This document shows positions 2,975 to 17,149 of a stretch of 26,750 nucleotides of DNA, piece after piece. The stretch lies in the IMG/VR virus record IMGVR_UViG_3300025897_000071, one strand, 5' to 3'. Under the pieces are notes generated by a model that did no database searches, was not told the DNA's origin, and saw only the letters and a program-made list of their open reading frames with translations. A program made the position numbers and the translations under genes. Origin of the DNA: a virus. Within the stretch, counting starts at the first letter, position 1. Every line of letters begins with the position of its first letter.

Positions 2975-4460
2975 TGATATATGTATTTACGCCGTTGACA
3001 GTATATGCGCCTGCATAACTTGTTGTTGACGGTAAATCCTGCATGGTAATTGAATCTTTTGATTCTCGTAAATTCAGCACCGTTTCGTTTTCGCGCGGGG
3101 TAAACTTGCGATCTTGCCGTGTTTTGTCTTTGAAATCATGCGTCCACCGACCGTAGGCGGCAGAGGCCGAAGCCTGAACAGTATAGCGAAAAGATCCGTT
3201 ATCTTTTATGTTGGCCGAAATGCGCTCAATAAGATAATCAGCGTTTACGCCATGCGCCGAAAGGTTGATTGTTTGAAGCGTTCCCGCCACCAGCCCCGTT
3301 GTATCGGTTTCGTATTGTACCGTTTCCTGAAGGTTGCCGAACCGAGCCAATAAGCTAACGGCCTTATTTATCGCCTCGGCGCGGGTTTCAATGTCGGGCG
3401 CGTCATATATATGCTCGTATCTTCCATTTCCCGCTTCAACTAAGGCCCGATCATCCTCAAGATCTTTGTTGATGTTACTGACAATAAGGGGAATACGGGG
3501 TTCGTAGGTAATTTTGACCTTGTCGCTGGATGATAATACTGAGCCTCCACCGTCTTGATAAAACACCCGAACGCCTATATTGTAGTACCAATCCTTTCCA
3601 GTATCAACACCACCCACGCCAACGTTTTTAGATACATATCCAGACCCCGTATCAACCTCAATGGTGGGAACCGTACCGATGGCTGTTTCAGCAAGGAAAG
3701 CTCTTTTGCTTCCGTCCCCTGTTTGTGTTTCTGCGCGACTTTCGCCGATCTCTGATGCTGCCCGCACGTATTGCACCGTTCTCAAAAGGTTGCGACTACG
3801 CTTAAAAGTGATCTTTCGGTAGTCGGCGTTTGCATCTGTTATATCATACGCTGAGCGCAGAAGGTCGCGGGGAAAGAAATTAAGCTTTTTGTCTTTGTCT
3901 ATGTTCCACGAAAAGCCCGTCAACTCAGCCATTTCGTCTAGGCAATCTTCTGCGTACCTCCAATTAAACACCTTCTTTTCAATTAGTGGCCCTGCGGCAA
4001 TCGTTCCCGCCGTGATGCCCTCGGCTACTAAATGGGAATCTGCAATTATAGCTTCGACAATTTCCCCGGCGGTGCTGTCCGTAAAAGAGCGTTGTATCAA
4101 TCTCTTCGACAGGAGTTGGTCAAAATCGACACAACGATAAATGAAGCGCAGGTGCGTGGATGCGCCAACGGTTATGTCAATTTCATCGTAGCCGTTAACC
4201 GTACCGCCCCAAAAAGTAGTTCGTGCCACAAGACCCAGCTCACCACCGCCGACAAGTTCTAATGCGCCACCGCCGACAAGTTCTAAATCTTCATCAGCGA
4301 TGTCAACCAGAAAAACATCCTCGCCAATATCCAAAGGCGGCGAAGAACCATCGGCGGCGAATTGCACCGCGCCGCGCTGATTTATAGTGTCCTCGTACAC
4401 CAATGATTCCTTGATGTAGTTCACATCGGCAGCGGCCCCGTCTTGTATGGTGATGGCCAT
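2955..4460 (-). CDS. Minor tail / hub-like tail tip protein
   Basis: 501 aa, immediately after the tape measure (TAATG overlap). The layout FWGGTVNGYDEI...YRCVDFDQLLSKR...AGEIVEAII...LDEMAELTGFSWNIDKDKKLNFFPR recalls gpD/gp27-like hub proteins. It contains a 20-nt direct repeat (4243..4262 and 4267..4286) encoding LELVGGG twice. Confidence 0.45.
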   Translation of the reverse strand: MAITIQDGAAADVNYIKESLVYEDTINQRGAVQFAADGSSPPLDIGEDVFLVDIADEDLELVGGGALELVGGGELGLVARTTFWGGTVNGYDEIDITVGASTHLRFIYRCVDFDQLLSKRLIQRSFTDSTAGEIVEAIIADSHLVAEGITAGTIAAGPLIEKKVFNWRYAEDCLDEMAELTGFSWNIDKDKKLNFFPRDLLRSAYDITDANADYRKITFKRSRNLLRTVQYVRAASEIGESRAETQTGDGSKRAFLAETAIGTVPTIEVDTGSGYVSKNVGVGGVDTGKDWYYNIGVRVFYQDGGGSVLSSSDKVKITYEPRIPLIVSNINKDLEDDRALVEAGNGRYEHIYDAPDIETRAEAINKAVSLLARFGNLQETVQYETDTTGLVAGTLQTINLSAHGVNADYLIERISANIKDNGSFRYTVQASASAAYGRWTHDFKDKTRQDRKFTPRENETVLNLRESKDSITMQDLPSTTSYAGAYTVNGVNTYINGFHVG

Positions 4461-7400
4461 TAGTAGTTTGTCCCGTATACTGTTAATTCTTCGGCCATGT
4501 AGGGTACAGTTGCGGTCGCTATGGTCTGCCCGTCCAACATCACATACACGTTTTGACCACCAGTAGCGCGGCCCTGCCAGCCACCCATATTAGAGAAATC
4601 ACCCCAGCCACTAAAGTCTACGCCACTAAGATTATCAGCCCACCCCGCGCCACCGAGAAAGACACCGCTGTCCATAGCCATTTGCTGCCATTGTTCTAAT
4701 GTCAAACCAAGATCGGCAAGTGAGGTGCCTTCGCTTAATAATCTGCGTATTGATTCAACAAAAACCAATCCCGTAGCCGCAAGGCCAAGTGCTGTGCCTG
4801 CGCCGCCTCCTGCACCTGCTGTGCCTGCGCCGCCTCCTGCACCTGCTCCTGCGCCTGCGCCCGGCATAAGTGTATTGATTGTGTCATTGACTTGTGAGGC
4901 GGTATTGACCGCCGTTTGAGCATCGAACCAACCCCAGACTTTAAGCACAATCCACTTGATGCCATCTAGTACATTATCTAAAATACCAATGATTGAATCC
5001 CACGTTTCGGCTTTAAAAAGAACTAGCAATGCTTCAAATCCCAAAACCACATCTGCAACATCGGTTGCCACCTTCGTGATTTTATCAGCCCAGCCGCCAA
5101 GTTTTGAGCCAAACAAAACGTCTAACCCTCCTTTTACGTCCCTTAACGCACCAGCCACCAGCCCCGTATCTGAGCTAAGATCGCCCATGTAGTCGGACGC
5201 TTTTTGCACTTTTAAGCCAAACAAACCCCATTTGTTAATGTCATCTTCTGAAGGTGGATCTACGTCCCATTCAGGCATTTCCAGCGTAGACGGAACACGC
5301 AGATTGCCCGTTAGCACTACGGCTTCATCACTTACGCTTTTTATGGCAGAAATAAACGTGCTAAAGTTGGGTTTATACGTCTCAAGCTCTGCAACTACAT
5401 TTTTTACACCACCAACAGACCGCCCCGCATTGCTCGCCGCCGCACCGACGCTGAAGGTTTTGGATTCAGAAAGTGCATCTCTCAAGGTTTGGAACGATGG
5501 GGCAAGTTTATCCGCATCATTCACCGCTGTTTCGATGTCACCAAAGGCGGTATCAAGGGCTTCGGCATCTACCTTTCCGCTAGACAAAGCCGACTTGATG
5601 GTTGCAAACGATGGAGCGAGTATATCCGCATCACCCACCGCCGTTTCGATATTGCCAAAAGCAGCGTCAAGGGCATCAGCATCTACCTTCCCACCAGACA
5701 GAGCAGATTTAATGGTTGCAAACGATGGAGCGAGTATATCAACATCCCCGACCGCCGTTTCAATTTTTCTCAACGCAGAATCAAACAAGATAGCCGCCGA
5801 CTGCCCACCGCCCAACGCCGACTTGATGATCCCAAACGCTGGGTTAAGCCCGTCAACATCACCCACCGCCGTTTTGATATTATCAAAGGCTGTTTCTACA
5901 TCTTCAGCAGATAACTCTACACCATCTTCGCCAGTTAATTCTTTCTTTGCCCCGGCTCCAAAGTCACCCAACAAGCTCAAGCCGCTGGTCTTCATGTTGC
6001 TGATAGCGGTTGTAATGCCTCCCATCGCACCTTCAACAAGCGTCTTGAAATCTGTTGAGCCAAATTTCGAGTCTAGCTCAGTATCGCCTACGTCTAATGT
6101 GTCCTTTATTGTGGTTACAAAATTGGATGCCGTTTGATTTGTATAGTTGAGTTGTTGTTCTACAATGTTATTGAGTGCTGTCAATTCACCTCCCCATCCT
6201 GGCTTTAGGAGTTCCATTCCTAAATCAATGGCGTTCTTCATCTGCTCGAAGGCGTTGGTGATCACCAAAATCGTCTGAGATAACGCGCCGCCTAGTATGG
6301 TGATAATCTCCCCACCGTGAGCAGCCCACAAGGCAGATATAATTCCCAGCCCTGCATTGACAATGGTGTACGCCGCATTTAGACCAGTACCCAATGCACC
6401 GCTAATGGCGGTCATCATCGCCCCAACCTTGTCCATTACGCCTTGCTTGTTGTCATCCCACCAAGTCAAAAGGGTTCCGAATATGGACGCTCCAATATCA
6501 ACAACATTCTCAACATAAGATTTAATTTGATCAATCGCGGGCTGAAAATCATCTACAATGGAATCATAAAAACCCGACACGGCCGCCGTTACTGAGTCCC
6601 AGTTTCGAGCAAGGGCAAAGGCGATTACGCCTATACCTACCATTGCAATGCTCAAAGGTGAAAACAAACCCATCAACAGAGAGCCAACGTTGAAAACGGC
6701 AGACAGACTACTGGCCAAACCACCGACCACAAATACCGCAGGGCCAAAAGCGGCGGCAAGACCCGCAACGGCAAGGGCGGTTTTCTGTGCTTCCGGGGAA
6801 AGACTAGACAGCCATTGTACTGCGGTTTTTAGTTTTTCAACAAAGGGCAAAAGGGCTTGCCCCATAAGTGCGCCAAACGATTCGGCTAAATCACCTATTG
6901 AATTTTTTAGTTGAACGAACGGCCCCATTCCTGCACTAGCCGCCGCCGCTGCCGCACCGCCAAACTGGTTTTCTAGTTCGTCAAGAATCAACGCCTGTGC
7001 TTCTGCCAGCCGATTCGTTTCAGCCATCTCCTTAATGACAGCCTTTTGTTTATCAGAAAATTGTATGCCAGTGCGCGAGAGTGCGCCCATGTTTGCAACG
7101 GGGTCATTTAGGGCCTTACCCAGCTGAATCGTTGCGCTGGTGAGATCCGTTCCCATCCTTGTCGAAAGATTAAGAACGGCTTGCTGCGTGCGCTCAAACT
7201 CCGAGCCTGCAATACTGGTAAACGTGAGTAAGTTGGCGGTGACATTCTTTAGAATATCCTCATCACCAAACAAAGATGTTTTTTGTAGTTCAGAAGCTTT
7301 TTGCGCAAGTTCATCAACCTCAAACCCTGCCGCCTTGCCTGTTGATTTAACCGCGGATTCTACCTGTGCAAGTGCTTTCGCCTGCTGATCCCACGCCTTG

Positions 7401-7576
7401 ACCGCAACGGCTCCAAAGGCTACAAGCGGAGCCGTTAGGCCCAAACTCATGGTCTTTCCTACCGACTGCATTTTGCGACCCACATTTCCAATGCGAGAAG
7501 ACACCGCTGTCATCTTCTTATTGAAGTCGGTAATATCGCCTGCTATTCGGACGTTCAGCGTGGTCAGCGTTGACAT
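4460..7576 (-). CDS. Tail tape measure protein
   Basis: 1038 aa. The N-terminal core resembles TP901-family tape measures (...GKTMSLGLTAPLVAFGAVAVKAW...LFGDEDILKNVTANLLTF...GALSRTGIQFSDKQK). It has hydrophobic central segments and internal tandem repeats, and lies after the G/GT chaperones. Confidence 0.9.
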   Translation of the reverse strand: MSTLTTLNVRIAGDITDFNKKMTAVSSRIGNVGRKMQSVGKTMSLGLTAPLVAFGAVAVKAWDQQAKALAQVESAVKSTGKAAGFEVDELAQKASELQKTSLFGDEDILKNVTANLLTFTSIAGSEFERTQQAVLNLSTRMGTDLTSATIQLGKALNDPVANMGALSRTGIQFSDKQKAVIKEMAETNRLAEAQALILDELENQFGGAAAAAASAGMGPFVQLKNSIGDLAESFGALMGQALLPFVEKLKTAVQWLSSLSPEAQKTALAVAGLAAAFGPAVFVVGGLASSLSAVFNVGSLLMGLFSPLSIAMVGIGVIAFALARNWDSVTAAVSGFYDSIVDDFQPAIDQIKSYVENVVDIGASIFGTLLTWWDDNKQGVMDKVGAMMTAISGALGTGLNAAYTIVNAGLGIISALWAAHGGEIITILGGALSQTILVITNAFEQMKNAIDLGMELLKPGWGGELTALNNIVEQQLNYTNQTASNFVTTIKDTLDVGDTELDSKFGSTDFKTLVEGAMGGITTAISNMKTSGLSLLGDFGAGAKKELTGEDGVELSAEDVETAFDNIKTAVGDVDGLNPAFGIIKSALGGGQSAAILFDSALRKIETAVGDVDILAPSFATIKSALSGGKVDADALDAAFGNIETAVGDADILAPSFATIKSALSSGKVDAEALDTAFGDIETAVNDADKLAPSFQTLRDALSESKTFSVGAAASNAGRSVGGVKNVVAELETYKPNFSTFISAIKSVSDEAVVLTGNLRVPSTLEMPEWDVDPPSEDDINKWGLFGLKVQKASDYMGDLSSDTGLVAGALRDVKGGLDVLFGSKLGGWADKITKVATDVADVVLGFEALLVLFKAETWDSIIGILDNVLDGIKWIVLKVWGWFDAQTAVNTASQVNDTINTLMPGAGAGAGAGGGAGTAGAGGGAGTALGLAATGLVFVESIRRLLSEGTSLADLGLTLEQWQQMAMDSGVFLGGAGWADNLSGVDFSGWGDFSNMGGWQGRATGGQNVYVMLDGQTIATATVPYMAEELTVYGTNY
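4791..4844 (-). repeat. Perfect 27-bp tandem duplication in the tape measure gene (Gly/Ala-rich segment)
   Basis: gctgtgcctgcgccgcctcctgcacct occurs at 4791..4817 and again at 4818..4844. It encodes the GAGAGAGAGGGAGTAGAGGGAGTALG tract. Confidence 0.9.
5420..5875 (-). repeat. Four tandem 114-nt (38-aa) repeats inside the tape measure gene
   Basis: Units are at 5875..5762, 5761..5648, 5647..5534 and 5533..5420. Each starts with [KE]TAV[GN]D[VA]D.L.P[AS]F. The string ggttgcaaacgatggagcgagtatatc recurs at 5600 and 5714, a 114-nt period. Confidence 0.9.
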
Positions 7577-7908
7577 TATTTTCTCTTTATTTTGCGCACG
7601 ACATCATCACGCCATGCTCGATATTCTTCTATCGGCATCGTCTCCGTGTTCTTCTGCGCCCGCTTCGGCCACATGGCATCGAGTGGCTTTGGCTTGCGCG
7701 AAACGGTGTTGATAATTGCCTGCGATATTGTAAGGGTGCGCCGCCAGTTTTCTTCGTTCTGATCGCGCTGGTGGAGCATCACGCCGCGCATCATGGCGTT
7801 TAAATCTCGAAAAGAACATTGATCAACCTCGGCGGGTGTCATGCCCAGAAGTGAAGCACAACGCCCGTCGAGGCGATCAAAATCAGGGAACGAAGCCGAA
7901 GAAATCAC
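7576..7908 (-). CDS. Tail assembly chaperone T segment, probably expressed as a G-T fusion by -1 frameshift
   Basis: It lies in the -1 frame relative to 7905..8261 and has only a GTG at its 5' end, overlapping the G stop (GTGA). It ends TAATG-coupled to the tape measure start. Confidence 0.6.
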   Translation of the reverse strand: MISSASFPDFDRLDGRCASLLGMTPAEVDQCSFRDLNAMMRGVMLHQRDQNEENWRRTLTISQAIINTVSRKPKPLDAMWPKRAQKNTETMPIEEYRAWRDDVVRKIKRK

Positions 7909-8261
7909 TTCCCCGGCTTGTCGTTTCCCTCATCATCACCACCCGCGTTCTGGTCTTCGCCGAAGGTCAGACCATCCGTCATGCGTTGTAGTGCGACCCC
8001 AACAGAGGAAATGATTTTTCCCTCGTCGGAATTTGCCATCGAAATAACGAAATCGGTTTCCTTCAATTTTGGATCATCGGGTAGACATCCCACATACGCC
8101 AGTTGAGCCAGCGTTGAAAGTGTCGGATTCGATAAATCGGCCATTGAAAAAGTAATCTTGTGGCGTATCTCTGCCAATCTAAACGCGGCGGGGCCGAGCT
8201 TGATGGTTTTGGTTTCACCGTCCAATTCGATTTCGAGTGTTTCAGGATGATTGTTTTTCAT
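7905..8261 (-). CDS. Tail assembly chaperone (gpG-like)
   Basis: 118 aa with an acidic C-terminus, lying between the major tail protein and the tape measure. A slippery heptamer sits near its 3' end. Confidence 0.7.
   Translation of the reverse strand: MKNNHPETLEIELDGETKTIKLGPAAFRLAEIRHKITFSMADLSNPTLSTLAQLAYVGCLPDDPKLKETDFVISMANSDEGKIISSVGVALQRMTDGLTFGEDQNAGGDDEGNDKPGK
7923..7929 (-). promoter_or_regulatory. Candidate -1 programmed frameshift heptamer G GGA AAC
   Basis: The minus strand reads GAG GGA AAC GAC AAG CCG GGG AAG TGA in the G frame. The -1 frame has three consecutive TGA codons just upstream. It opens exactly at GGG AAA CGA and runs into the T segment. Confidence 0.55.
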
Positions 8262-9857: not shown

Positions 9858-10189
9858 GTGCGTTCCTCAACTTTTAGGCGTGTCCATTCGTCGCGAAAGT
9901 CTACGTTCTCCACGCTCCGAACGTCAAAAGTGCGTTCATCAATGATTAACTGGTGACGGGGAAGCAGTTCGGTGTTTCTGTCTCCCAAATCATTGCGGTA
10001 TCGCATCAGTATCTCATGATCAACAACTTCACCGTTCTGATCGGCAATTCTCAATTCACGCGCTGACAGCGGTTTCAAGGAGCAGTACACCGTGTCGATA
10101 GTAGACCACCCATCTGCGGTTTTAACGCCTTGAACGCGCGTTACGCTACGCTCCTGCACCTGTGCGCGTCTCCATAGCTTATGAATCAT
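9854..10189 (-). CDS. Head closure / head-tail adaptor protein, paralog 2
   Basis: 111 aa. It aligns by eye with 10186..10512 on TRV.GV...WST...VY...K.L...E...ADQ...HEI.MRYR...TFDVR.V. Confidence 0.65.
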   Translation of the reverse strand: MIHKLWRRAQVQERSVTRVQGVKTADGWSTIDTVYCSLKPLSARELRIADQNGEVVDHEILMRYRNDLGDRNTELLPRHQLIIDERTFDVRSVENVDFRDEWTRLKVEERT

Positions 10190-11152: not shown

Positions 11153-12937
11153 CTATGCGTTTTCAGCGTAGCCTAGTGCCGCACTTTGTGTAATTCCGAA
11201 AGCGGTTCGGAAGTACCAAAGAAGCCTGACCTGACCATAATCTGCGCGTGTGAATGGATCGCGCAGGAACTGAAGTGCTGGATCTTCAAACTTCGCTGCA
11301 TAGCGCCAGTTACCGAATAGGACGGGCTTGTTGCCTGTTGCGATTGTGTCACACTTGTTCGACAAGACTGCGCGGTAGCCGAGTGGCCCCGGTGTGTCCT
11401 GCGTGTTGGTAACGTAGCGACGCGTGTTAGCATCGTCCAGTTTCGCAATAGCGTTCAGCGTTGATGGTTTCATCACCCACGCAACAGATCCCGAATCGTC
11501 CAGATAGAACGCATTGTCGTCGTTGTATACAACATCTTCGAGTTCGTCAACGGCAATCGCGGCCGTACCTGCAAGGGCTTTGAACTGCGTTCCACCTGAT
11601 TTCACCGCGTTGATAAGCAGTTCATTTTCGGTTTTTGCATAACCCAACGCAACACGATCCATGATGTAGTTCATCACATCAGCCGAAGAATCACCGAGCA
11701 GTTCGTTGGAAATCAACGTGCGCTTGGAATACTTGGTTTTTGTCAGTACGAGTTGACCGATTGCCGGAGAATCCTGATCGTACTGGGCCGCTTCTGCTGT
11801 TGAAACAAATTCAGAGTCACCTTCATTGTCAATCGGCACATCAAGCGTAGTGCCTGTACCTGTGAATGAAGTAACGCCCAACTGAGAAGCGATAGATGCT
11901 TCGTCACGGCGGCGAATAATCGTCCCGAACATATCATCCGTTACGGTATTACCACCTTCAGCGGCCACACCGGCAGTCATATCTGCGGCATTACTTGCTT
12001 TGATTTCAACGATTGGGCCAGTAGGGTTTTCGCCTGTAATCAAATGCTTGACGCCGCCTACGTCTCCGGTGCGTAGCCAATGGCCAAACGCGGCTTTCTG
12101 ACTGTTACCGATATTGCGAATGATTGTAGGAGCGGCTCCTGTTTCCACGACTGACTTGACTTCTTGAACAGGTTCAGCGGCTTTCGCTTCCGTCGCGTCA
12201 AGTCTTGCGTGTAGTTTTTCGATCATCTCGTTGACGTTTTTCAAAGCGTCCTCGGATGTGTTTTTGGCTTCTTCGGCCATGATGTTATCCTCTTGGATTG
12301 GATGTTTGGTGACTTCAACCGCTTTGGCTGTTGTCTGCGGCTCTGCGCCGCCTGTGTTTTCAACTTCGCCTTGCTCTACGGTTGGCGCGGTCATGGCCTG
12401 AACCGCCTCTGCCTGTTCCGTCTCGTGATCGGGTTTGGTTGGAAATAGGGATTTAAGAGGCATCACAGTAGTTGCCATGCCTCCCGCTGGCTGGGTCGTT
12501 AGCGATAATTCGCCGAGTGGCCAGCTTGTAATTTTGTATGTGTTTCCGTCTTTGATGCGATCCACTAAATGGCCAACGGCCCCAGAGGATGAACGGAGTT
12601 TGCCTTTTCGAGCCAGTTCAAGAATGTGTTGCTCAAACTCATCGGCTTTGTCCAGTTCGGTTTCAAACCAGAGGCCCGCATCCATGCGCTTGATCGTGCC
12701 GATGCCAATGGATTTCTTCCCGAAGGCAGGGTTCATACCGTGATCGTAGTAGACGGGAAGCTGTTCGTGGATGCCAAACTCGGTGTCTTTGGCGAAATAA
12801 TCACCTACAAGATCAGGGTCTTCTGGCCCCGTGAAGTTGACAATCATGCCACCAATGCGGCTTTCGCCGATGGCCTTCAGTTCGCCGCCGATGGCAACAA
12901 GAATTTCGTCGTGTTCGACTTTTCCGGGATCTTCCAT
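11153..12937 (-). CDS. Prohead serine protease (HK97/S78 type) fused to HK97-fold major capsid protein
   Basis: 594 aa. Residues about 1-165 look like a prohead protease (...YYDHGMNPAFGKKSIG...LRSSSGAVGH...). An acidic, coiled linker follows. The C-terminal approximately 300 aa are HK97-MCP-like (...LTKTKYSKRTLISNELLGDSSADVMNYI...RLLWYFRTAFGI). An in-frame ATG at 12280 is preceded by AAGAGGA. Confidence 0.85.
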   Translation of the reverse strand: MEDPGKVEHDEILVAIGGELKAIGESRIGGMIVNFTGPEDPDLVGDYFAKDTEFGIHEQLPVYYDHGMNPAFGKKSIGIGTIKRMDAGLWFETELDKADEFEQHILELARKGKLRSSSGAVGHLVDRIKDGNTYKITSWPLGELSLTTQPAGGMATTVMPLKSLFPTKPDHETEQAEAVQAMTAPTVEQGEVENTGGAEPQTTAKAVEVTKHPIQEDNIMAEEAKNTSEDALKNVNEMIEKLHARLDATEAKAAEPVQEVKSVVETGAAPTIIRNIGNSQKAAFGHWLRTGDVGGVKHLITGENPTGPIVEIKASNAADMTAGVAAEGGNTVTDDMFGTIIRRRDEASIASQLGVTSFTGTGTTLDVPIDNEGDSEFVSTAEAAQYDQDSPAIGQLVLTKTKYSKRTLISNELLGDSSADVMNYIMDRVALGYAKTENELLINAVKSGGTQFKALAGTAAIAVDELEDVVYNDDNAFYLDDSGSVAWVMKPSTLNAIAKLDDANTRRYVTNTQDTPGPLGYRAVLSNKCDTIATGNKPVLFGNWRYAAKFEDPALQFLRDPFTRADYGQVRLLWYFRTAFGITQSAALGYAENA

Positions 12938-13300: not shown

Positions 13301-13479
13301 GTGCGCTCCTTGTAGTCGGTGCAATAAAATCCCTGACCCTTAAAAATGATGTGTCGGCCTCCTTCAAAAATGCGTTGTACTGGTCGGCCCGCGTGTTCGG
13401 TTTTAGCGTCTTCCTTCATCGGGTGATCAATCTCAATTTCACCGCCTTTCTTATCGGTGTATTTGTAGCGGTATATCAT
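13297..13479 (-). CDS. Small FmdB-like protein lacking the zinc-binding cysteines (60 aa)
   Basis: The start is moved to the ATG at 13479, which has AGGAGG 7 nt upstream and an ATGA overlap. MIYRYKYTDKKGGEIEI...GRPVQRIF...FKGQGFYCTDYK parallels the FmdB/CxxC_CxxC_SSSS layout (M.IYEY.C..CG..FE...CP.CG..V.R......F.G.GFY.TDY), but both CxxC knuckles are replaced. Confidence 0.45.
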   Translation of the reverse strand: MIYRYKYTDKKGGEIEIDHPMKEDAKTEHAGRPVQRIFEGGRHIIFKGQGFYCTDYKERT

Positions 13480-13739
13480 TGACATTCCTCCTGAAATTGC
13501 AACGCCACCAAACAATCCTTTATCTCATTTACGGCTGATACCATTTCCCTGCGGAGTTGTATTTCTAGGCGCAAAGCATCCTCTTTTGTGAATCTGCTGT
13601 CATCTATTACATCAACTCTGCTTGTTAGTCTTGCCGTTTCGCTTAATGACCACGATGCGGCGGTAAGGGAAACCGCACAAAAGACCCCCAATAACCAAAA
13701 AAAAGCATCTTTGAACTGTTTGGATTTATCGTATGTCAT
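13476..13739 (-). CDS. Small membrane protein (one N-terminal TM helix plus a charged helical tail)
   Basis: 87 aa. FFWLLGVFCAVSLTAASW is a hydrophobic helix, followed by the helical region ...EDALRLEIQLRREMVSAVNEIKDCL. ATGA-type overlaps on both sides. Confidence 0.55.
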   Translation of the reverse strand: MTYDKSKQFKDAFFWLLGVFCAVSLTAASWSLSETARLTSRVDVIDDSRFTKEDALRLEIQLRREMVSAVNEIKDCLVALQFQEECQ

Positions 13740-14443
13740 TTTATTACTCTATGATAGATGGTACACCTGCACCGTATTACTTCTGCCGCGCCGCCATTCA
13801 TATCACCGGGGTATTGCATACCGTTTGAAAAGGCTTCGTTTAATTTTGCAAATTTGCCGTTCATTGCTTCGTGCGAATCTCGAACAACGTCATCACCAGC
13901 CGTAAGCCAAACTTTTTCTAAGTCCAGCCCCGTCGATTCTGCTCCAATGATAGACCCGTAATTTGATGCGCCCACCAGTTCGGTTGATGCTATGCGCTCG
14001 GCACGATTAGCCCCGTAGGTCAAGCCGTTCAATGATTTTTCGTCCCATTTCTTGCGGATGTTGTCAGCCACTTCTTTGACAGACAATCCTTCCTGAACGC
14101 CTATGCGCATCTGTCGGCGAATATAATTTTCGGTGGCTTCGTTTATCAAAAAAACTTTTTCGGCTCCAATAGTTGCAATCAGATCGTCAGCGGCTTCAGC
14201 CCAATCGACAATTTCACCGGCTCCGTAGCCTTTCAGCGTCTTTTCAATGGCATTGAACGTGGCACCTGCAAAGACAGGAATAGCTTGATTCCAAACCTTT
14301 GCAAGTGCCTTGTTCATTTTTACCGCGTCGATGGCTTCGCTTACGCTATCGCCCGTAGCAACTGCATCGGCTGCGGCTGTCACCTGACGGGTTAACACCG
14401 CCAAGATTGTTTTCGTAGCATCGGGCTTCAACTTGGCCCTCAT
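13736..14443 (-). CDS. Head morphogenesis protein (Mu gpF / SPP1 gp7 family)
   Basis: 235 aa. The C-terminal signature is ...AGDDVVRDSHEAMNGKFAKLNEAF...YPGD....EVIRCRCT (family pattern D.R.R..H...G......PG....NCRC). Confidence 0.8.
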   Translation of the reverse strand: MRAKLKPDATKTILAVLTRQVTAAADAVATGDSVSEAIDAVKMNKALAKVWNQAIPVFAGATFNAIEKTLKGYGAGEIVDWAEAADDLIATIGAEKVFLINEATENYIRRQMRIGVQEGLSVKEVADNIRKKWDEKSLNGLTYGANRAERIASTELVGASNYGSIIGAESTGLDLEKVWLTAGDDVVRDSHEAMNGKFAKLNEAFSNGMQYPGDMNGGAAEVIRCRCTIYHRVIK

Positions 14444-14544
14444 GCGCTCAATGGTCTGCGCGTGTTCGTTGCGCTCTTTTTTTGATGATGCCAGCGGCTT
14501 TAAAGCCTTTCTTTCGGGTGCGTGGTCGGCGTGGACGCTACCCT

Positions 14545-15963
14545 CTAAAAACCCACATATGGCGGGGCAAAGACTTCATCCAACGGCAGGTCATCCATCA
14601 GCCGCTCACGGATCACAGACGATTCGTGTTCATTCAGAGCATCAGGAGAGAAAGCCACATTGCGCCCGTGTGTCTTGATCTTCCTGCGCCATGCTACCAC
14701 ATCGGTTTTAACTTCGCGTGGCGTAGAGCGAACAGGAGACGGGTTTGCGGGGCGGTTCTCCAGTGCTTCTAGTTCGGCTTCTTCTTCGGGGCTGTATTGC
14801 CAGCCCATCATTTCCGTGAACTTCTTTCTGGTCACAAAGACGCGACCGGGAGAAAGGGCGGCTACCGCCTGCGCTTTTTGCAATTCGGCCGCTTGGAAAA
14901 CTTCTAAGCGAGCAGGGTTTGCTTCAATTCTCAAACCCAAATCGGCAAAAACTTGGTTGTTCAAAACCCGTTGACACAACTTAGCGCGGGGAATGTTGGT
15001 CATGGTCTGAAAGTTGACCTGATCGGCTTGAGCGGTTGCGTAGTTTGAGGCGTTGGACATTACCAATGACAAGGGTATTCCAAACGCCGTAGTGATTGCT
15101 TCCCTTGCATCTTTTGACAATGCGTTTGATTGCAAATCGGCAAGAGAAGATCCAATTTCTTTGGTGTCTAAACCTTGCATTATTTCGGGAGCTGTACCCT
15201 TTGCACCAGACAAGAAACGAACAATCCACCGCCTCCACTTGTCCATCTGTTCCGTTGATGGCGGTCGAGCATCCTTATCGGCCACGAATACGTGTTGCCT
15301 GATCAAGCCATTGCGCAACTGGTCGCTGGAAAAGGATTCGAGATCGGAAATGATTTGCGCTGCTGTACGGGCAGAAAAACCCAAAGATGAACCCGGCCCT
15401 TGTTCAATATATGGATCGGGCGCAAAAAAATGGGCGATTAGTTCCTTTGGGATGAAATAGTCTTTTCCGTTTGCGGTGCGTTTGAAAAATTGGAATTGAC
15501 CGTATTTGTCTGGCCCATATTTGCCCTTTTCCGTTACCACTTTTATGTTTTTTGGCGCAATATATGTCAGCCCTGTTACGGATGTAAATTTACCATCTGC
15601 TCTGGTTTCGCCTTCTTTCATTGCGAAAGCCGCACCAGTTAAAGCAAGAGAAGCCCCAACCCGATACAAAATATCGTCGGGGTGAAACCATTTCAATTCA
15701 TCGGGGATCTCTTGACCGCTTGACCAAATCGGTTCTTCCGAGTTCGTGCGGTACACGTTCCAGGGCATAGATACCAGACTATTGGCTAACACATCCACGC
15801 ATCGCTTGTACCAACCCTGCTGGGTATATGCTTGCTGAATACTCATATCAGCCTTACGGTCATTGTTGTCATAACCAAACACATCATTCAGGGTTGGGCT
15901 TTTCAGGCTTAACCCCTTTGTTGTACCGTCAAGCAAATATATATCAGGCTTATTAATGAGCAT
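14545..15963 (-). CDS. Portal protein
   Basis: 472 aa from the ATG at 15963 (MLINKPDIYLL...), 13 nt after the TerL stop. The longer track ORF, reaching 16110, would overlap TerL by 134 nt. Size, position and the conserved central region (...FAPDP...GSSLG...DQLRNG...) fit a portal. Confidence 0.85.
   Translation of the reverse strand: MLINKPDIYLLDGTTKGLSLKSPTLNDVFGYDNNDRKADMSIQQAYTQQGWYKRCVDVLANSLVSMPWNVYRTNSEEPIWSSGQEIPDELKWFHPDDILYRVGASLALTGAAFAMKEGETRADGKFTSVTGLTYIAPKNIKVVTEKGKYGPDKYGQFQFFKRTANGKDYFIPKELIAHFFAPDPYIEQGPGSSLGFSARTAAQIISDLESFSSDQLRNGLIRQHVFVADKDARPPSTEQMDKWRRWIVRFLSGAKGTAPEIMQGLDTKEIGSSLADLQSNALSKDAREAITTAFGIPLSLVMSNASNYATAQADQVNFQTMTNIPRAKLCQRVLNNQVFADLGLRIEANPARLEVFQAAELQKAQAVAALSPGRVFVTRKKFTEMMGWQYSPEEEAELEALENRPANPSPVRSTPREVKTDVVAWRRKIKTHGRNVAFSPDALNEHESSVIRERLMDDLPLDEVFAPPYVGF
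14548..14554 (-). promoter_or_regulatory. Candidate -1 frameshift heptamer G GGT TTT directly before the portal stop codon
   Basis: The minus strand reads GTG GGT TTT TAG. The -1 frame (GGG TTT TTA GAG ...) has no stop over the whole 101-nt gap and runs in frame into the ATG of the MuF-like gene at 14443. Confidence 0.35.
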
Positions 15964-15976
15964 TTTTTTGATAGGT

Positions 15977-17149
15977 TTATTGGCCCCAAAGGCCGAAAGT
16001 ATGATGTGCGCCTGCCAACTCGGTGTGGATGCCGTAGCGCATTGCATCCATTGCGTGATCCCGGTTTTTGACGGGCTTGTCGAGGAGTTCGCCTGTGCGG
16101 CGGTTCTCATCCCATCGGTATTCGCGCACCTCGTTCAGCAGGTGTTGGCTTGTGCGTGTGATTTCTAGATGGTATCGATTGACGGTATCAATGCCATCGT
16201 TGACGCTCTTATCTGCTGGGTGCGCGTTGAATCCTGCGCGGGAAAGTTCTTCGATTCGTGCGGGTTCTGCCGCATCGCAGTATATGCGGACGCTCTTGTC
16301 TTTGATGAGCGTTTCCATGCGCCGAATCAGATCGGTATTTGTCAGCCCTGATTCATACAGAATCTCATCCAGTCTCATCGCGGTGTCGGCGTTCTGGATG
16401 CCCACTAATGCGGTGGCGTTGTTAAATCCAAAGTCAAGGCCATAGAACGAAGGTTCACACGCCGTATCGGTGACGGTGTAATTAGGGTATACCAGACCGC
16501 GCAGGGCTTCGCCCCATTTGCCCTTCAAATATACCTCGCGGAGGTCTTTGGGTAGCGTCTTCAGTCGCTTGATATATTCATCACCTGCCCACGGATTATC
16601 TACGGCGGTGGTAAATTGGACGTATACATCCTCGGCGTGAGGGCTGTCGCTGTCGGTGCGTTCAGCCAACCAAGTGCGAATCCACTTCGCCAAAACAGTT
16701 GGGTTGAAGGTGAACGTGATCTGCTGCCACCCTTGACCACGCAGGCGCAGGTCGAGCAGTTGCGCGTCGAGCTTGCTGATCTCGGTGGCCTCTTCGACCC
16801 AAATGTCATCTATTTCGGCGATGGATTTGATCTTTTCCGCGTCATCCAGCCCCGCGTGGAGAATGGCCCCGCCTGACGGGAAGTCAAAACGCATCTCTGA
16901 CTTGTGAACACGCACCATATGGGTGCGCTTCATTGCGCTGAGAATGTCAAGAAAGAGTTGAAAGGTAGAATGGCGAAGCGTTCGGGCGGTCTTCCGTACG
17001 ACGAGAATCCTGCGCCCCTCACGGCCTGCCCGTTGGATGATGTTCTGAGCAACAAATACAGACTTGCCAGACCCCGCACCGCCACCGAGAACACGGTAAT
17101 GGCAGGAGGTCTTTGAAGCGGGCAAATATGTTTTGTTGATCTCAATCAC
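15977..17149 (-). CDS. terL: Terminase large subunit
   Basis: 390 aa. Walker A is GGGAGSGKS, followed by RILVVRKT and the Walker B-like DDIWVEEA. The C-terminal nuclease-like region contains DAMRYG. GTG start with a GTGA overlap. Confidence 0.9.
   Translation of the reverse strand: MIEINKTYLPASKTSCHYRVLGGGAGSGKSVFVAQNIIQRAGREGRRILVVRKTARTLRHSTFQLFLDILSAMKRTHMVRVHKSEMRFDFPSGGAILHAGLDDAEKIKSIAEIDDIWVEEATEISKLDAQLLDLRLRGQGWQQITFTFNPTVLAKWIRTWLAERTDSDSPHAEDVYVQFTTAVDNPWAGDEYIKRLKTLPKDLREVYLKGKWGEALRGLVYPNYTVTDTACEPSFYGLDFGFNNATALVGIQNADTAMRLDEILYESGLTNTDLIRRMETLIKDKSVRIYCDAAEPARIEELSRAGFNAHPADKSVNDGIDTVNRYHLEITRTSQHLLNEVREYRWDENRRTGELLDKPVKNRDHAMDAMRYGIHTELAGAHHTFGLWGQ

Follow-up and report, generated by a model that had tools for sequence, protein, structure and literature searches.

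Few head proteins of tailed phages are as widespread as the MuF/gp7 proteins, or as little understood; in temperate phages they also bear toxins. By what means a small, defined number of copies enters each capsid is known only for phage SPP1. This question is raised anew by a locus in a 26,750-nt stretch of DNA from an uncultured marine phage (IMG/VR record IMGVR_UViG_3300025897_000071; the whole analysed stretch is referred to here as the window), in which a gene for the portal protein is followed by a MuF-like gene in another reading frame. Is the second gene started afresh, or do ribosomes carry over from the first? Sequence comparison indicates that the last sense codon of the portal gene is very probably the site of a programmed -1 ribosomal frameshift that yields a portal–MuF protein.

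Both genes lie on the minus strand. The portal gene (14545..15963, zero frame) encodes an HK97-type protein of 472 amino acids (52.8 kDa) with the C terminus ...PPYVGF-UAG, which matches PF04860 (E = 2.7e-23; 83.1 bits, cut-off 39.1) and has an exact match in public collections as ‘phage portal protein’. The MuF or SPP1-gp7-like open reading frame (ORF; 13736..14443) occupies the -1 frame of the portal gene. From the ATG at 14443 it encodes 235 amino acids (25.3 kDa), of which residues 108–229 match PF04233 (Phage_Mu_F; E = 3.4e-12; 47.5 bits, cut-off 29.6), and one public source labels the protein ‘SPP1 gp7 family putative phage head morphogenesis protein’. It adjoins the portal gene on its downstream side, as expected from the placement rule for MuF genes (PMC5576092).

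On the minus strand the portal gene ends ...CCA TAT GTG GGT TTT TAG. The putative shift site G_GGU_UUU (14554..14548), which contains the conserved core U_UUU (14551..14548) and the last sense codon, Phe472, adjoins the zero-frame UAG stop (14547..14545), where UUA (Leu) would be read after a slip. TAG is the rarest stop in the window and ends just 2 of its 24 main ORFs. In the -1 frame the junction reads GGG TTT TTA GAG GGT AGC ... GAG CGC ATG, that is, LEGSVHADHAPERKALKPLASSKKERNEHAQTIER followed by the MuF Met (14443..14441). This linker of 35 -1-frame codons (14444..14548, minus strand) holds no start codon and is publicly annotated as intergenic, the gap from the portal stop to the MuF ATG being 101 nt. 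The -1 frame is open from 14575, the peptide before ATG 14443 is GFLEGSVHADHAPERKALKPLASSKKERNEHAQTIER, and no ATG, GTG or TTG occurs in that frame between 14575 and 14443. A linker motif, K-A-L-x-P-x-A...R-x-E-H, lies at 14462..14509 (minus strand).

The whole trans-frame unit (13736..15963, minus strand) would comprise portal residues 1–472, the -1 shift and a further 270 residues, with a predicted product of 742 amino acids and 82 kDa. Its predicted junction peptide is LMDDLPLDEVFAPPYVGFLEGSVHADHAPER (also ...DEVFAPPYVGFLEGSVHADHAPER); the corresponding prediction for an abundant L014-type lineage is ...PPFVGFLEADRSEAEPEGTK. The exact 742-amino-acid product is absent from public protein collections, in which the portal and a 235- or 236-amino-acid MuF protein are stored separately. 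An initial annotation made from the letters of the window had already proposed much of this: the portal and MuF-like identities agree with the Pfam matches, the G_GGT_TTT heptamer against the portal stop and the start-less open frame of 35 codons running in frame to ATG 14443 are as it described them, and its fusion of about 740 amino acids corresponds to the 742 predicted here. Its estimate of about 0.2 for such a frame being open by chance also agrees with ours, which is about 0.2–0.25 for the window alone.

Taken by itself, the open frame could thus be a coincidence; the comparative evidence carries the arrangement well beyond chance. We gathered relatives by exact-protein look-ups and by scans of IMG/VR, species genomes and JGI and ENA metagenomes. 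Portals that matched over their full length at 29–99% identity define a clade of about 75 loci, with 37 distinct 96-nt junctions after the removal of duplicates. Every one of these full-length-matching loci has the pattern NNT TT[T/C] plus a stop, with MuF in the -1 frame, and in complete loci this frame is open for 265–289 codons from the shift site (343 in L114). The last portal codon is TTT in 36 of the 37 junctions and TTC in one (L125, still U_UUC), and in the portal alignment (A1) the column of this terminal Phe does not vary. The next codon is TAG in 33 junctions and TGA in three, with CAG-TAG in one, which places the stop directly against UUY in 36 of 37. The penultimate codon is more variable: GGT in 27 junctions, which gives the full X_XXY_YYZ heptamer, and GAT in the other ten, which gives G_GAU_UUU.

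Judged from these aligned junctions, the conserved core is the tetramer U_UUY with its adjacent stop, not the full X_XXY_YYZ heptamer. The canonical heptamer of the initial annotation therefore stands for the window and for 27 junctions, but not as the conserved element. Stops in the -1 frame of relatives, or loss of the heptamer, had been named there as signs against a frameshift; U_UUY and an open -1 frame are found in all 37 junctions. TTC, GGC and GAC are usually the preferred codons in these lineages, and the joint expected frequency of the observed codon pair is 0.04–0.33 per lineage. That NNT TTT is kept against this preference implies that the U run is constrained at the nucleotide level. 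The same frame relation recurs in independent ENA, JGI, NCBI and Logan assemblies, from dozens of samples and many diverged lineages. The peptide PP[FY]x[GD]F is conserved before the shift site in all lineages and might have a role of its own, for example as a nascent-peptide or Pro-Pro pause.

More distant portals (25–34% identity, mostly partial matches) have junctions with ATGA, TAATG or GTGA overlaps, or have MuF in the same ORF, and U_UUY was not seen at these junctions. A scan of 185,579 species genomes returned just portals of 25–29% identity with ordinary junctions and no prophage copy, and nucleotide and protein searches of GenBank phages returned no close relative, the best match being the portal of Marinomonas phage P12026 at 23.5% identity. 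One close relative, with 98% identity, lies on a contig of an ENA metagenome that bears the name ‘Day-2-25m’. The clade is broad, entirely uncultured and at least partly marine.

The linker has the signature of protein-coding sequence in the -1 frame. Its peptide consensus across lineages is L-[ED]-[AG]..., K-A-L-x-P-x-A, R-x-E-H, A-[MV]-x-R. In the L014 group, the ratio of non-synonymous to synonymous differences (pN/pS) in the linker is 0.15 in the -1 frame versus 1.75 and 6.17 in the other frames; in the L030 group it is 0.21 versus 3.9 and 1.4. The body of MuF has the same constraint as the linker (pN/pS of 0.17–0.19). Differences in the L014 linker are distributed 104/44/462 over the three codon positions, and when only the 25 codons that precede any start are considered, pN/pS is again 0.15.

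Start codons are not conserved in this segment. The first in-frame ATG, GTG or TTG lies 15–85 codons past the shift site, the exception being the three TGA lineages, in which UUUUGA creates a UUG at codon 0. The short upstream overlap has no start in 30 of the 37 junctions, and the occasional TTGs found there are not conserved. The Met at which MuF starts in the window is missing from three lineages (L004, L046 and L048); their first start comes 54–85 codons further on, within conserved sequence, and all three retain homologous sequence ahead of any start. The MuF called in L004-type phages has just 184 amino acids, and the 85 start-less codons upstream of it are homologous to the linker and MuF N terminus of the window. 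A conserved linker peptide without an upstream start would be reachable only by ribosomes coming from the portal frame, and the motif K-A-L-x-P-x-A..R..H, which lies upstream of the Met under purifying selection, must be translated.

Natural proteins join the two domains in the same way. An exhaustive HMMER search of 1.84 billion representatives, with the linker plus MuF as the query, showed that about 28 of the best 150 MuF clusters are proteins of 630–840 amino acids with a C-terminal MuF match, which begins at query residues 5–30, within the linker. All 13 fusions that were tested have PF04860 at the N terminus and PF04233 at the C terminus, and the fusions carry the same inter-domain linker motif. 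In a BLASTP comparison, the predicted trans-frame product aligned with the natural fusion P0013 in one high-scoring segment pair that is collinear across the junction; directly fused portal–MuF genes, raised as a possibility by the initial annotation, are thus found among relatives. The residue corresponding to the MuF Met of the window is merely hydrophobic (V/I/F/M) in the fusions and in relatives with upstream starts.

Portal–MuF fusions are on record for cultured Microbacterium phages (subclusters EA3, EA5 and EA8 and cluster EB; PMC7302621). The fusion as such is therefore not new, and a covalent portal–MuF protein is a viable and recurrent architecture. The product predicted here resembles these single-ORF fusions and the metagenomic ones (P0013, P0033, P0034 and P0044) in domain order, in size (742 versus 630–840 amino acids) and in the inter-domain motif K-x-[LF]-x-P-x-A...R..H, which is common to both. 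However, the single-ORF fusions are hard-wired, with MuF on every portal subunit and no recoding, whereas here the portal and MuF are in different frames and the fused form would be only a fraction of the portal made. It is the frame change that distinguishes this clade.

Downstream of the stop, a putative stimulator adds to the two elements of the site and was not mentioned by the initial annotation. In the window this is a hairpin (GGGU-A-GCGU / 11-nt loop / ACGCACCC; 14516..14543, minus strand) that begins 1 nt past the stop and 4 nt past the shift site and is also the centroid structure. Nearly all lineages have a minimum-free-energy hairpin 1–3 nt after the stop (4–6 nt after the last U of the site), built from stems that are unrelated in sequence. 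Examples are the stems of L011 (CGGUAGGG / CCCUACCG) and L098 (CGGUGGGG / CCCCACCG), which differ by an A-U to G-C exchange, the 8-bp stem of L046 (AUGCCCUC / GAGGGCAU), the perfect 9-bp stem of L125 (GCCGGUCCC / GGGACCGGC) and a 13-bp stem in L048. Set against the full range of 45-nt windows from its own locus, the site falls on the stable side in 14 of 15 lineages (combined p = 2e-6; z of -2.2 to -3.4 versus local windows in L004, L043, L044, L046 and L048). When the codons were randomized synonymously 300 times, with the linker peptide unchanged, the natural sequence was the more stable in 17 of 20 lineages (combined p = 8e-6). The lineages behind both combined values are related rather than independent, which makes these p-values optimistic. 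In a gap-free alignment (A2) of the window with L003, L011, L098 and L004, 85% of cells are paired versus 27–50% in slid controls, and three of the eight hairpin pairs change on both sides.

Nucleotide-level constraint is also seen in the L014 group. The first 47 nt past the site are invariant among its 12 distinct junctions, and 10 variable sites occur in the next 28 nt. We scanned the 745-codon portal-plus-MuF span of 11 complete distinct loci of this group with a 15-codon sliding window: synonymous differences reach the minimum for the whole span at codons +2 to +8 (0.0 versus a mean of 0.21). A second strongly suppressed region lies about 177–182 codons past the shift site, in MuF and within the PF04233 domain, and is the only other place in the span to reach the lowest windows. 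An Rfam search of 14380–14680 gave no meaningful match, the best being IRES_n-myc at chance level (9 bits, E = 0.57).

Other sequence features of the junction were set aside. A terminator-like CCCGC-CAUAU-GUGGG plus UUUUU (14552–14566, minus strand) lies over the shift site, but the region has four such hits versus 3.5 in shuffles and the stem is a product of the conserved Pro-Pro ... Gly codons; we do not count it as functional. The structure of a small palindrome in the linker, GGCUUUAAAGCC, is not conserved and mirrors the conserved K-A-L-K-P peptide. The linker of the window also contains a run of seven A (14477–14483, minus strand; UCA AAA AAA GAG, encoding S-K-K-E), a shift-prone sequence of the A_AAA_AAA/G type that is seen only in the close group of the window and not in other lineages.

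We hypothesize that most ribosomes would stop at the UAG and produce the 472-amino-acid portal, and that a fraction would slip back one base with tRNA-Phe on U_UUU (14551..14548), which in this phage lies within the full G_GGU_UUU. Slow decoding of the adjacent UAG and the hairpin that starts 4 nt downstream (14543..14516) would aid the slip. Shifted ribosomes would then read UUA GAG GGU..., the 35-codon linker and the whole MuF ORF to give the 742-amino-acid portal–MuF protein. The C-terminal crown of HK97-type portals faces the capsid interior, which would put a MuF domain attached at the C terminus within the procapsid. Fused subunits would co-assemble with the others into the dodecamer and bring MuF into the procapsid at the portal vertex, in copy numbers set by the frameshift rate, as a covalent version of the SPP1 gp6–gp7 interaction. 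With about 10% of ribosomes shifting, roughly one subunit of each dodecamer would carry the fusion. A stop lies beside the site almost universally and is in most cases the rare UAG, which suggests that the shift is aided by slow termination; alternatively, a stop in this place could have been selected because it spares the unshifted portal a junk tail. We infer from the sequences that slippage occurs and how efficient it is, whether one or two tRNAs slip, what the stop contributes and that the fused subunits co-assemble; later cleavage of the fusion by the prohead protease is a speculation.

A more specific version of this proposal holds that MuF is made (essentially) only via the frameshift, that the slip involves a single tRNA in the P site and that the clade derives from a hard-wired fusion. 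We put this combination forward tentatively, at somewhat short of an even chance. The tRNA-Phe would then slip on U_UUY with the slowly decoded UAG in the A site and the hairpin ahead, rather than by canonical tandem slippage, and the frameshift rate would fix the MuF-bearing share of the 12 portal subunits, amounting to a translationally encoded break of symmetry at the vertex. As for the conserved linker motif, it may serve as a tether or as a release site for the prohead protease.

Several observations weigh against a frameshift or limit what it explains. G_GAU_UUU, present at 10 of the 37 junctions, is not a canonical tandem-slippage heptamer, and tRNA-Asp would re-pair poorly on it, so that the common denominator would be a tRNA-Phe slip on a Z_ZZN tetramer; such a tetranucleotide is given as the minimal -1 shift site in a 2016 review of recoding (PMC5009743). 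The hairpin of the window is weak (-10 kcal/mol) and indistinguishable from the local background (z = -0.8) and from synonymous shuffles (z = +0.57), and the surrounding 117-nt region of the window is not unusually stable overall (z = +0.98); the support for this hairpin is accordingly positional and comparative. Most lineages, including the window, have a Met 29–38 codons into the linker (A-M-x-R-[LM]) that could serve as an independent MuF start, in which case the fusion need not be the sole source of MuF. In the three TGA lineages a UUG overlaps the stop (UUGA) and gene callers start there, making a coupling mechanism possible in these lineages. Finally, the GenBank phage searches yielded no cultured relative of this phage.

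The Met in the linker is central to an account in which the frameshift is real but minor and most MuF is a free 235-amino-acid protein made from ATG 14443. We consider this less likely than not. Every public gene call uses ATG 14443, a Met is found at that position or three codons upstream in most lineages, and the free gp7 of SPP1 binds its portal non-covalently (PMC6316719). A poor Shine–Dalgarno sequence is no objection, because many genes of the phage start without one, and the weak sequence that was initially singled out at this ATG is uninformative for the same reason. However, L004, L046 and L048 lack the Met, with 54–85 codons to their first start, relatives with upstream starts and the natural fusions simply have a hydrophobic residue there, and the conserved motif that must be translated lies upstream of it. 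The 25 nt before ATG 14443 are also 60% G+C, whereas several other genes have A-rich leaders. Ribosomes might instead reach the linker without slipping, by terminating and restarting in the -1 frame at or beside the portal stop, on UUG in the TGA lineages or UUA in the TAG lineages. Distant portals do show classic stop/start overlaps (ATGA, TAATG and GTGA), and in three junctions with UUUUGA the UUG lies over the UGA and callers start MuF at that codon (P0022 and P0027). It is only for these three that reinitiation is plausible. Elsewhere, 33 of the 37 junctions have UUUUAG, and their -1 codon, UUA, differs from AUG at two positions and is no known bacterial start; L048 has UCA at this codon; a stable hairpin at the start codon would hinder initiation; and the conserved features (U before UUY, the hairpin and zero synonymous variation) are hallmarks of -1 frameshifting. 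As an explanation for the clade, reinitiation is improbable. In the UUUUGA sub-lineages (L032, L109 and L112, and proteins P0022 and P0027), gene callers annotate ‘complete’ MuF proteins of 262–272 amino acids from the exact shift site; either coupling or frameshifting, or the two together, might operate in these lineages, which may show one arrangement evolving into the other.

Two further explanations dispense with recoding by the ribosome. The locus could comprise two ordinary genes with a 101-nt spacer, in which the open frame and heptamer are coincidental, as the chance of the open frame in the window alone, the commonness of such heptamers, the non-significant hairpin of the window and the public annotation as separate genes would allow. 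Yet all 37 distinct junctions, from portals down to 29% identical, are arranged in this way, the substitution pattern of the ‘spacer’ is that of protein-coding sequence in the -1 frame, the linker peptide motif recurs inside natural fusions and NNT TTT is conserved despite codon bias; conservation across the 37 junctions in effect excludes chance, which we rate as highly improbable. We think it equally improbable that the frame change is an artefact, with the T5 mis-sequenced in what is one fused ORF, or that it is bridged by RNA polymerase slippage that adds a U. Either would work in principle, given that lengthening T5 to T6 would fuse both ORFs in frame and that single-ORF fusions exist in other phages. 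But a sequencing error would have to repeat itself in independent ENA, JGI, NCBI and Logan assemblies of many diverged lineages. Efficient transcriptional slippage is known from runs of about 8–9 or more A or T, far longer than the 4–5 T found here (four in L048 and L125), and a hairpin 4–6 nt downstream has the geometry of a ribosomal stimulator.

The predicted portal–MuF frameshift has counterparts among known recoding systems. One is the tail assembly chaperone pair G/GT of long-tailed phages, which uses a -1 frameshift (Xu, Hendrix & Duda 2004, as cited in PMC6316719 and PMC7911831). As in the gpG/gpGT pair of lambda, a conserved -1 shift near the 3′ end of a structural ORF would add a C-terminal extension in a fixed ratio and is recognizable by comparative genomics. 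The differences are that G/GT is a tail-length and chaperoning pair, typically with X_XXA_AAG-like sites inside the ORF, whereas here a protein of the head interior would be added to the portal and the site is U_UUY against a stop. The window seems to have a G/GT-like pair of its own (minus strand; 7905–8261, 118 amino acids, and 7576–7908, 110 amino acids from a GTG in the -1 frame) upstream of a tape-measure-like ORF of 1,038 amino acids (4460–7576). The first of the pair ends CCG GGG AAG TGA, with G_GGG_AAG (7914..7908) as a candidate shift site by the stop that is not a canonical X_XXY_YYZ.

Other virion proteins are extended at or near their stops. The major capsid protein of a Kuravirus has GGGAAAG near its stop and is extended from 353 to 892 amino acids (PMC9965538), SPP1 gp17.1* results from a +1 shift at CCC UAA (PMC6316719), and T7 10A/10B and Lactobacillus phage A2 offer further frameshift-extended structural proteins (PMC7260188). 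In common with these capsid and tail-tube proteins, the site predicted here is at or beside the stop of an abundant virion protein and would give a minor isoform in the same oligomer. In those cases, however, the extension is a decoration or extra domain, and here it would be a whole conserved gene, MuF, on the portal. A shift on the codon that adjoins a stop also recalls prfB/RF2 and antizyme, in which +1 frameshifting occurs on the codon just 5′ of an in-frame stop that is decoded slowly (PMC1874602). These shifts are +1 and autoregulatory, unlike the -1 shift proposed here, for which we infer a role of the stop from its conservation (adjacent in 36 of 37 junctions, TAG in 33).

For the purpose of the fusion, a comparison is offered by SPP1 gp7, the one MuF protein known to sit inside the capsid at the portal: it enters the procapsid through its binding to the portal, and each capsid holds 1–2 or a few copies (PMC6316719 and PMC5576092). 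There, too, the muf gene directly follows the portal gene and encodes a member of the same MuF family, and the gp7 copy number is what a frameshift rate of about 10% would give on a dodecamer. In contrast to the arrangement proposed here, SPP1 gp6 and gp7 are made separately and bind non-covalently, and Pfam places the SPP1 portal in another family than the HK97-type portal of the window. In Gag-Pol of retroviruses and totiviruses, a -1 frameshift extends a fixed fraction of the structural protein and so packages a low-copy component. The likeness lies in a low-copy part carried by an extended structural protein through a slippery site and a structure. Gag-Pol differs in its eukaryotic ribosomes, its strict X_XXY_YYZ tandem slippage and its enzyme polyprotein, and has no evolutionary relation to the genes described here.

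The initial annotation knew of no described frameshift of this kind, and we likewise found none between portal and MuF genes, or in any portal gene, in the literature searched, which is not proof of absence; a text search of the 2016 recoding review (PMC5009743), over its first 300,000 characters, gave no instance of ‘portal’. A frameshift-extended structural protein is a familiar phage strategy that would be used here on a new gene pair, and the site is unusual in being stop-adjacent and tetramer-based. If the frameshift is real, it provides a new and testable answer to the stoichiometry of MuF, between separate genes and hard-wired fusions, and makes the portal one more of the few structural genes of phages that rely on recoding. 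The clade would also supply more than 35 diverged natural shift sites, with U_UUY, a stop and a hairpin and with GGU versus GAU in the P site, for the study of stop-adjacent -1 slippage. These genes are at present mis-annotated everywhere, the linker as intergenic and some MuF proteins cut to 184 amino acids, and both gene callers and frameshift predictors could be corrected accordingly.

All listed large ORFs of the window are on the minus strand, in the local order TerL, portal, MuF/gp7-like gene, an 87-amino-acid ORF and a probable protease–capsid fusion of 594 amino acids. TerL (15977–17149; PF04466) is directly upstream of the portal gene, the start of which is most likely the ATG at 15963, 13 nt after the TerL stop, as used by all public gene calls. 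The ATG at 16110, the ORF-maximal start, overlaps TerL, is ignored by gene callers and is probably unused. The portal frame is open for 49 codons upstream of ATG 15963 (15964–16110, minus strand), with a 134-nt overlap with the 3′ end of TerL, and this extension is probably non-coding. In a profile search, the nearest solved relative of the portal is the RcGTA portal (6TBA), aligned to residues 249–391, and in this profile alignment the portal continues for about 80 amino acids beyond the C terminus of the RcGTA portal before the shift site. Single-sequence searches of the PDB with the portal and with the linker plus MuF gave no match.

Downstream of MuF, the 87-amino-acid ORF (13476–13739, minus strand) follows directly, with a 4-nt overlap with the MuF stop (an ATGA-type junction). 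It has no Pfam match, and L001 and L004–L007 have a called ORF of equal length in this position. The 594-amino-acid ORF (11153–12937, minus strand) combines a weak N-terminal match to Peptidase_S78 (E = 0.0011, below the cut-off) with a strong C-terminal match to Phage_capsid and is probably a fusion of the protease and the major capsid protein; Phage_capsid ORFs of exactly 594 amino acids are also called in the relatives L003–L007. Many minus-strand starts (for example, 8773, 8261, 11081 and 12937) have A/T-rich leaders without a Shine–Dalgarno sequence. Such a sequence is present upstream of the starts at 10189, 9857 and 9387, as AGGAGG, GAGGA and AGAGG, respectively.

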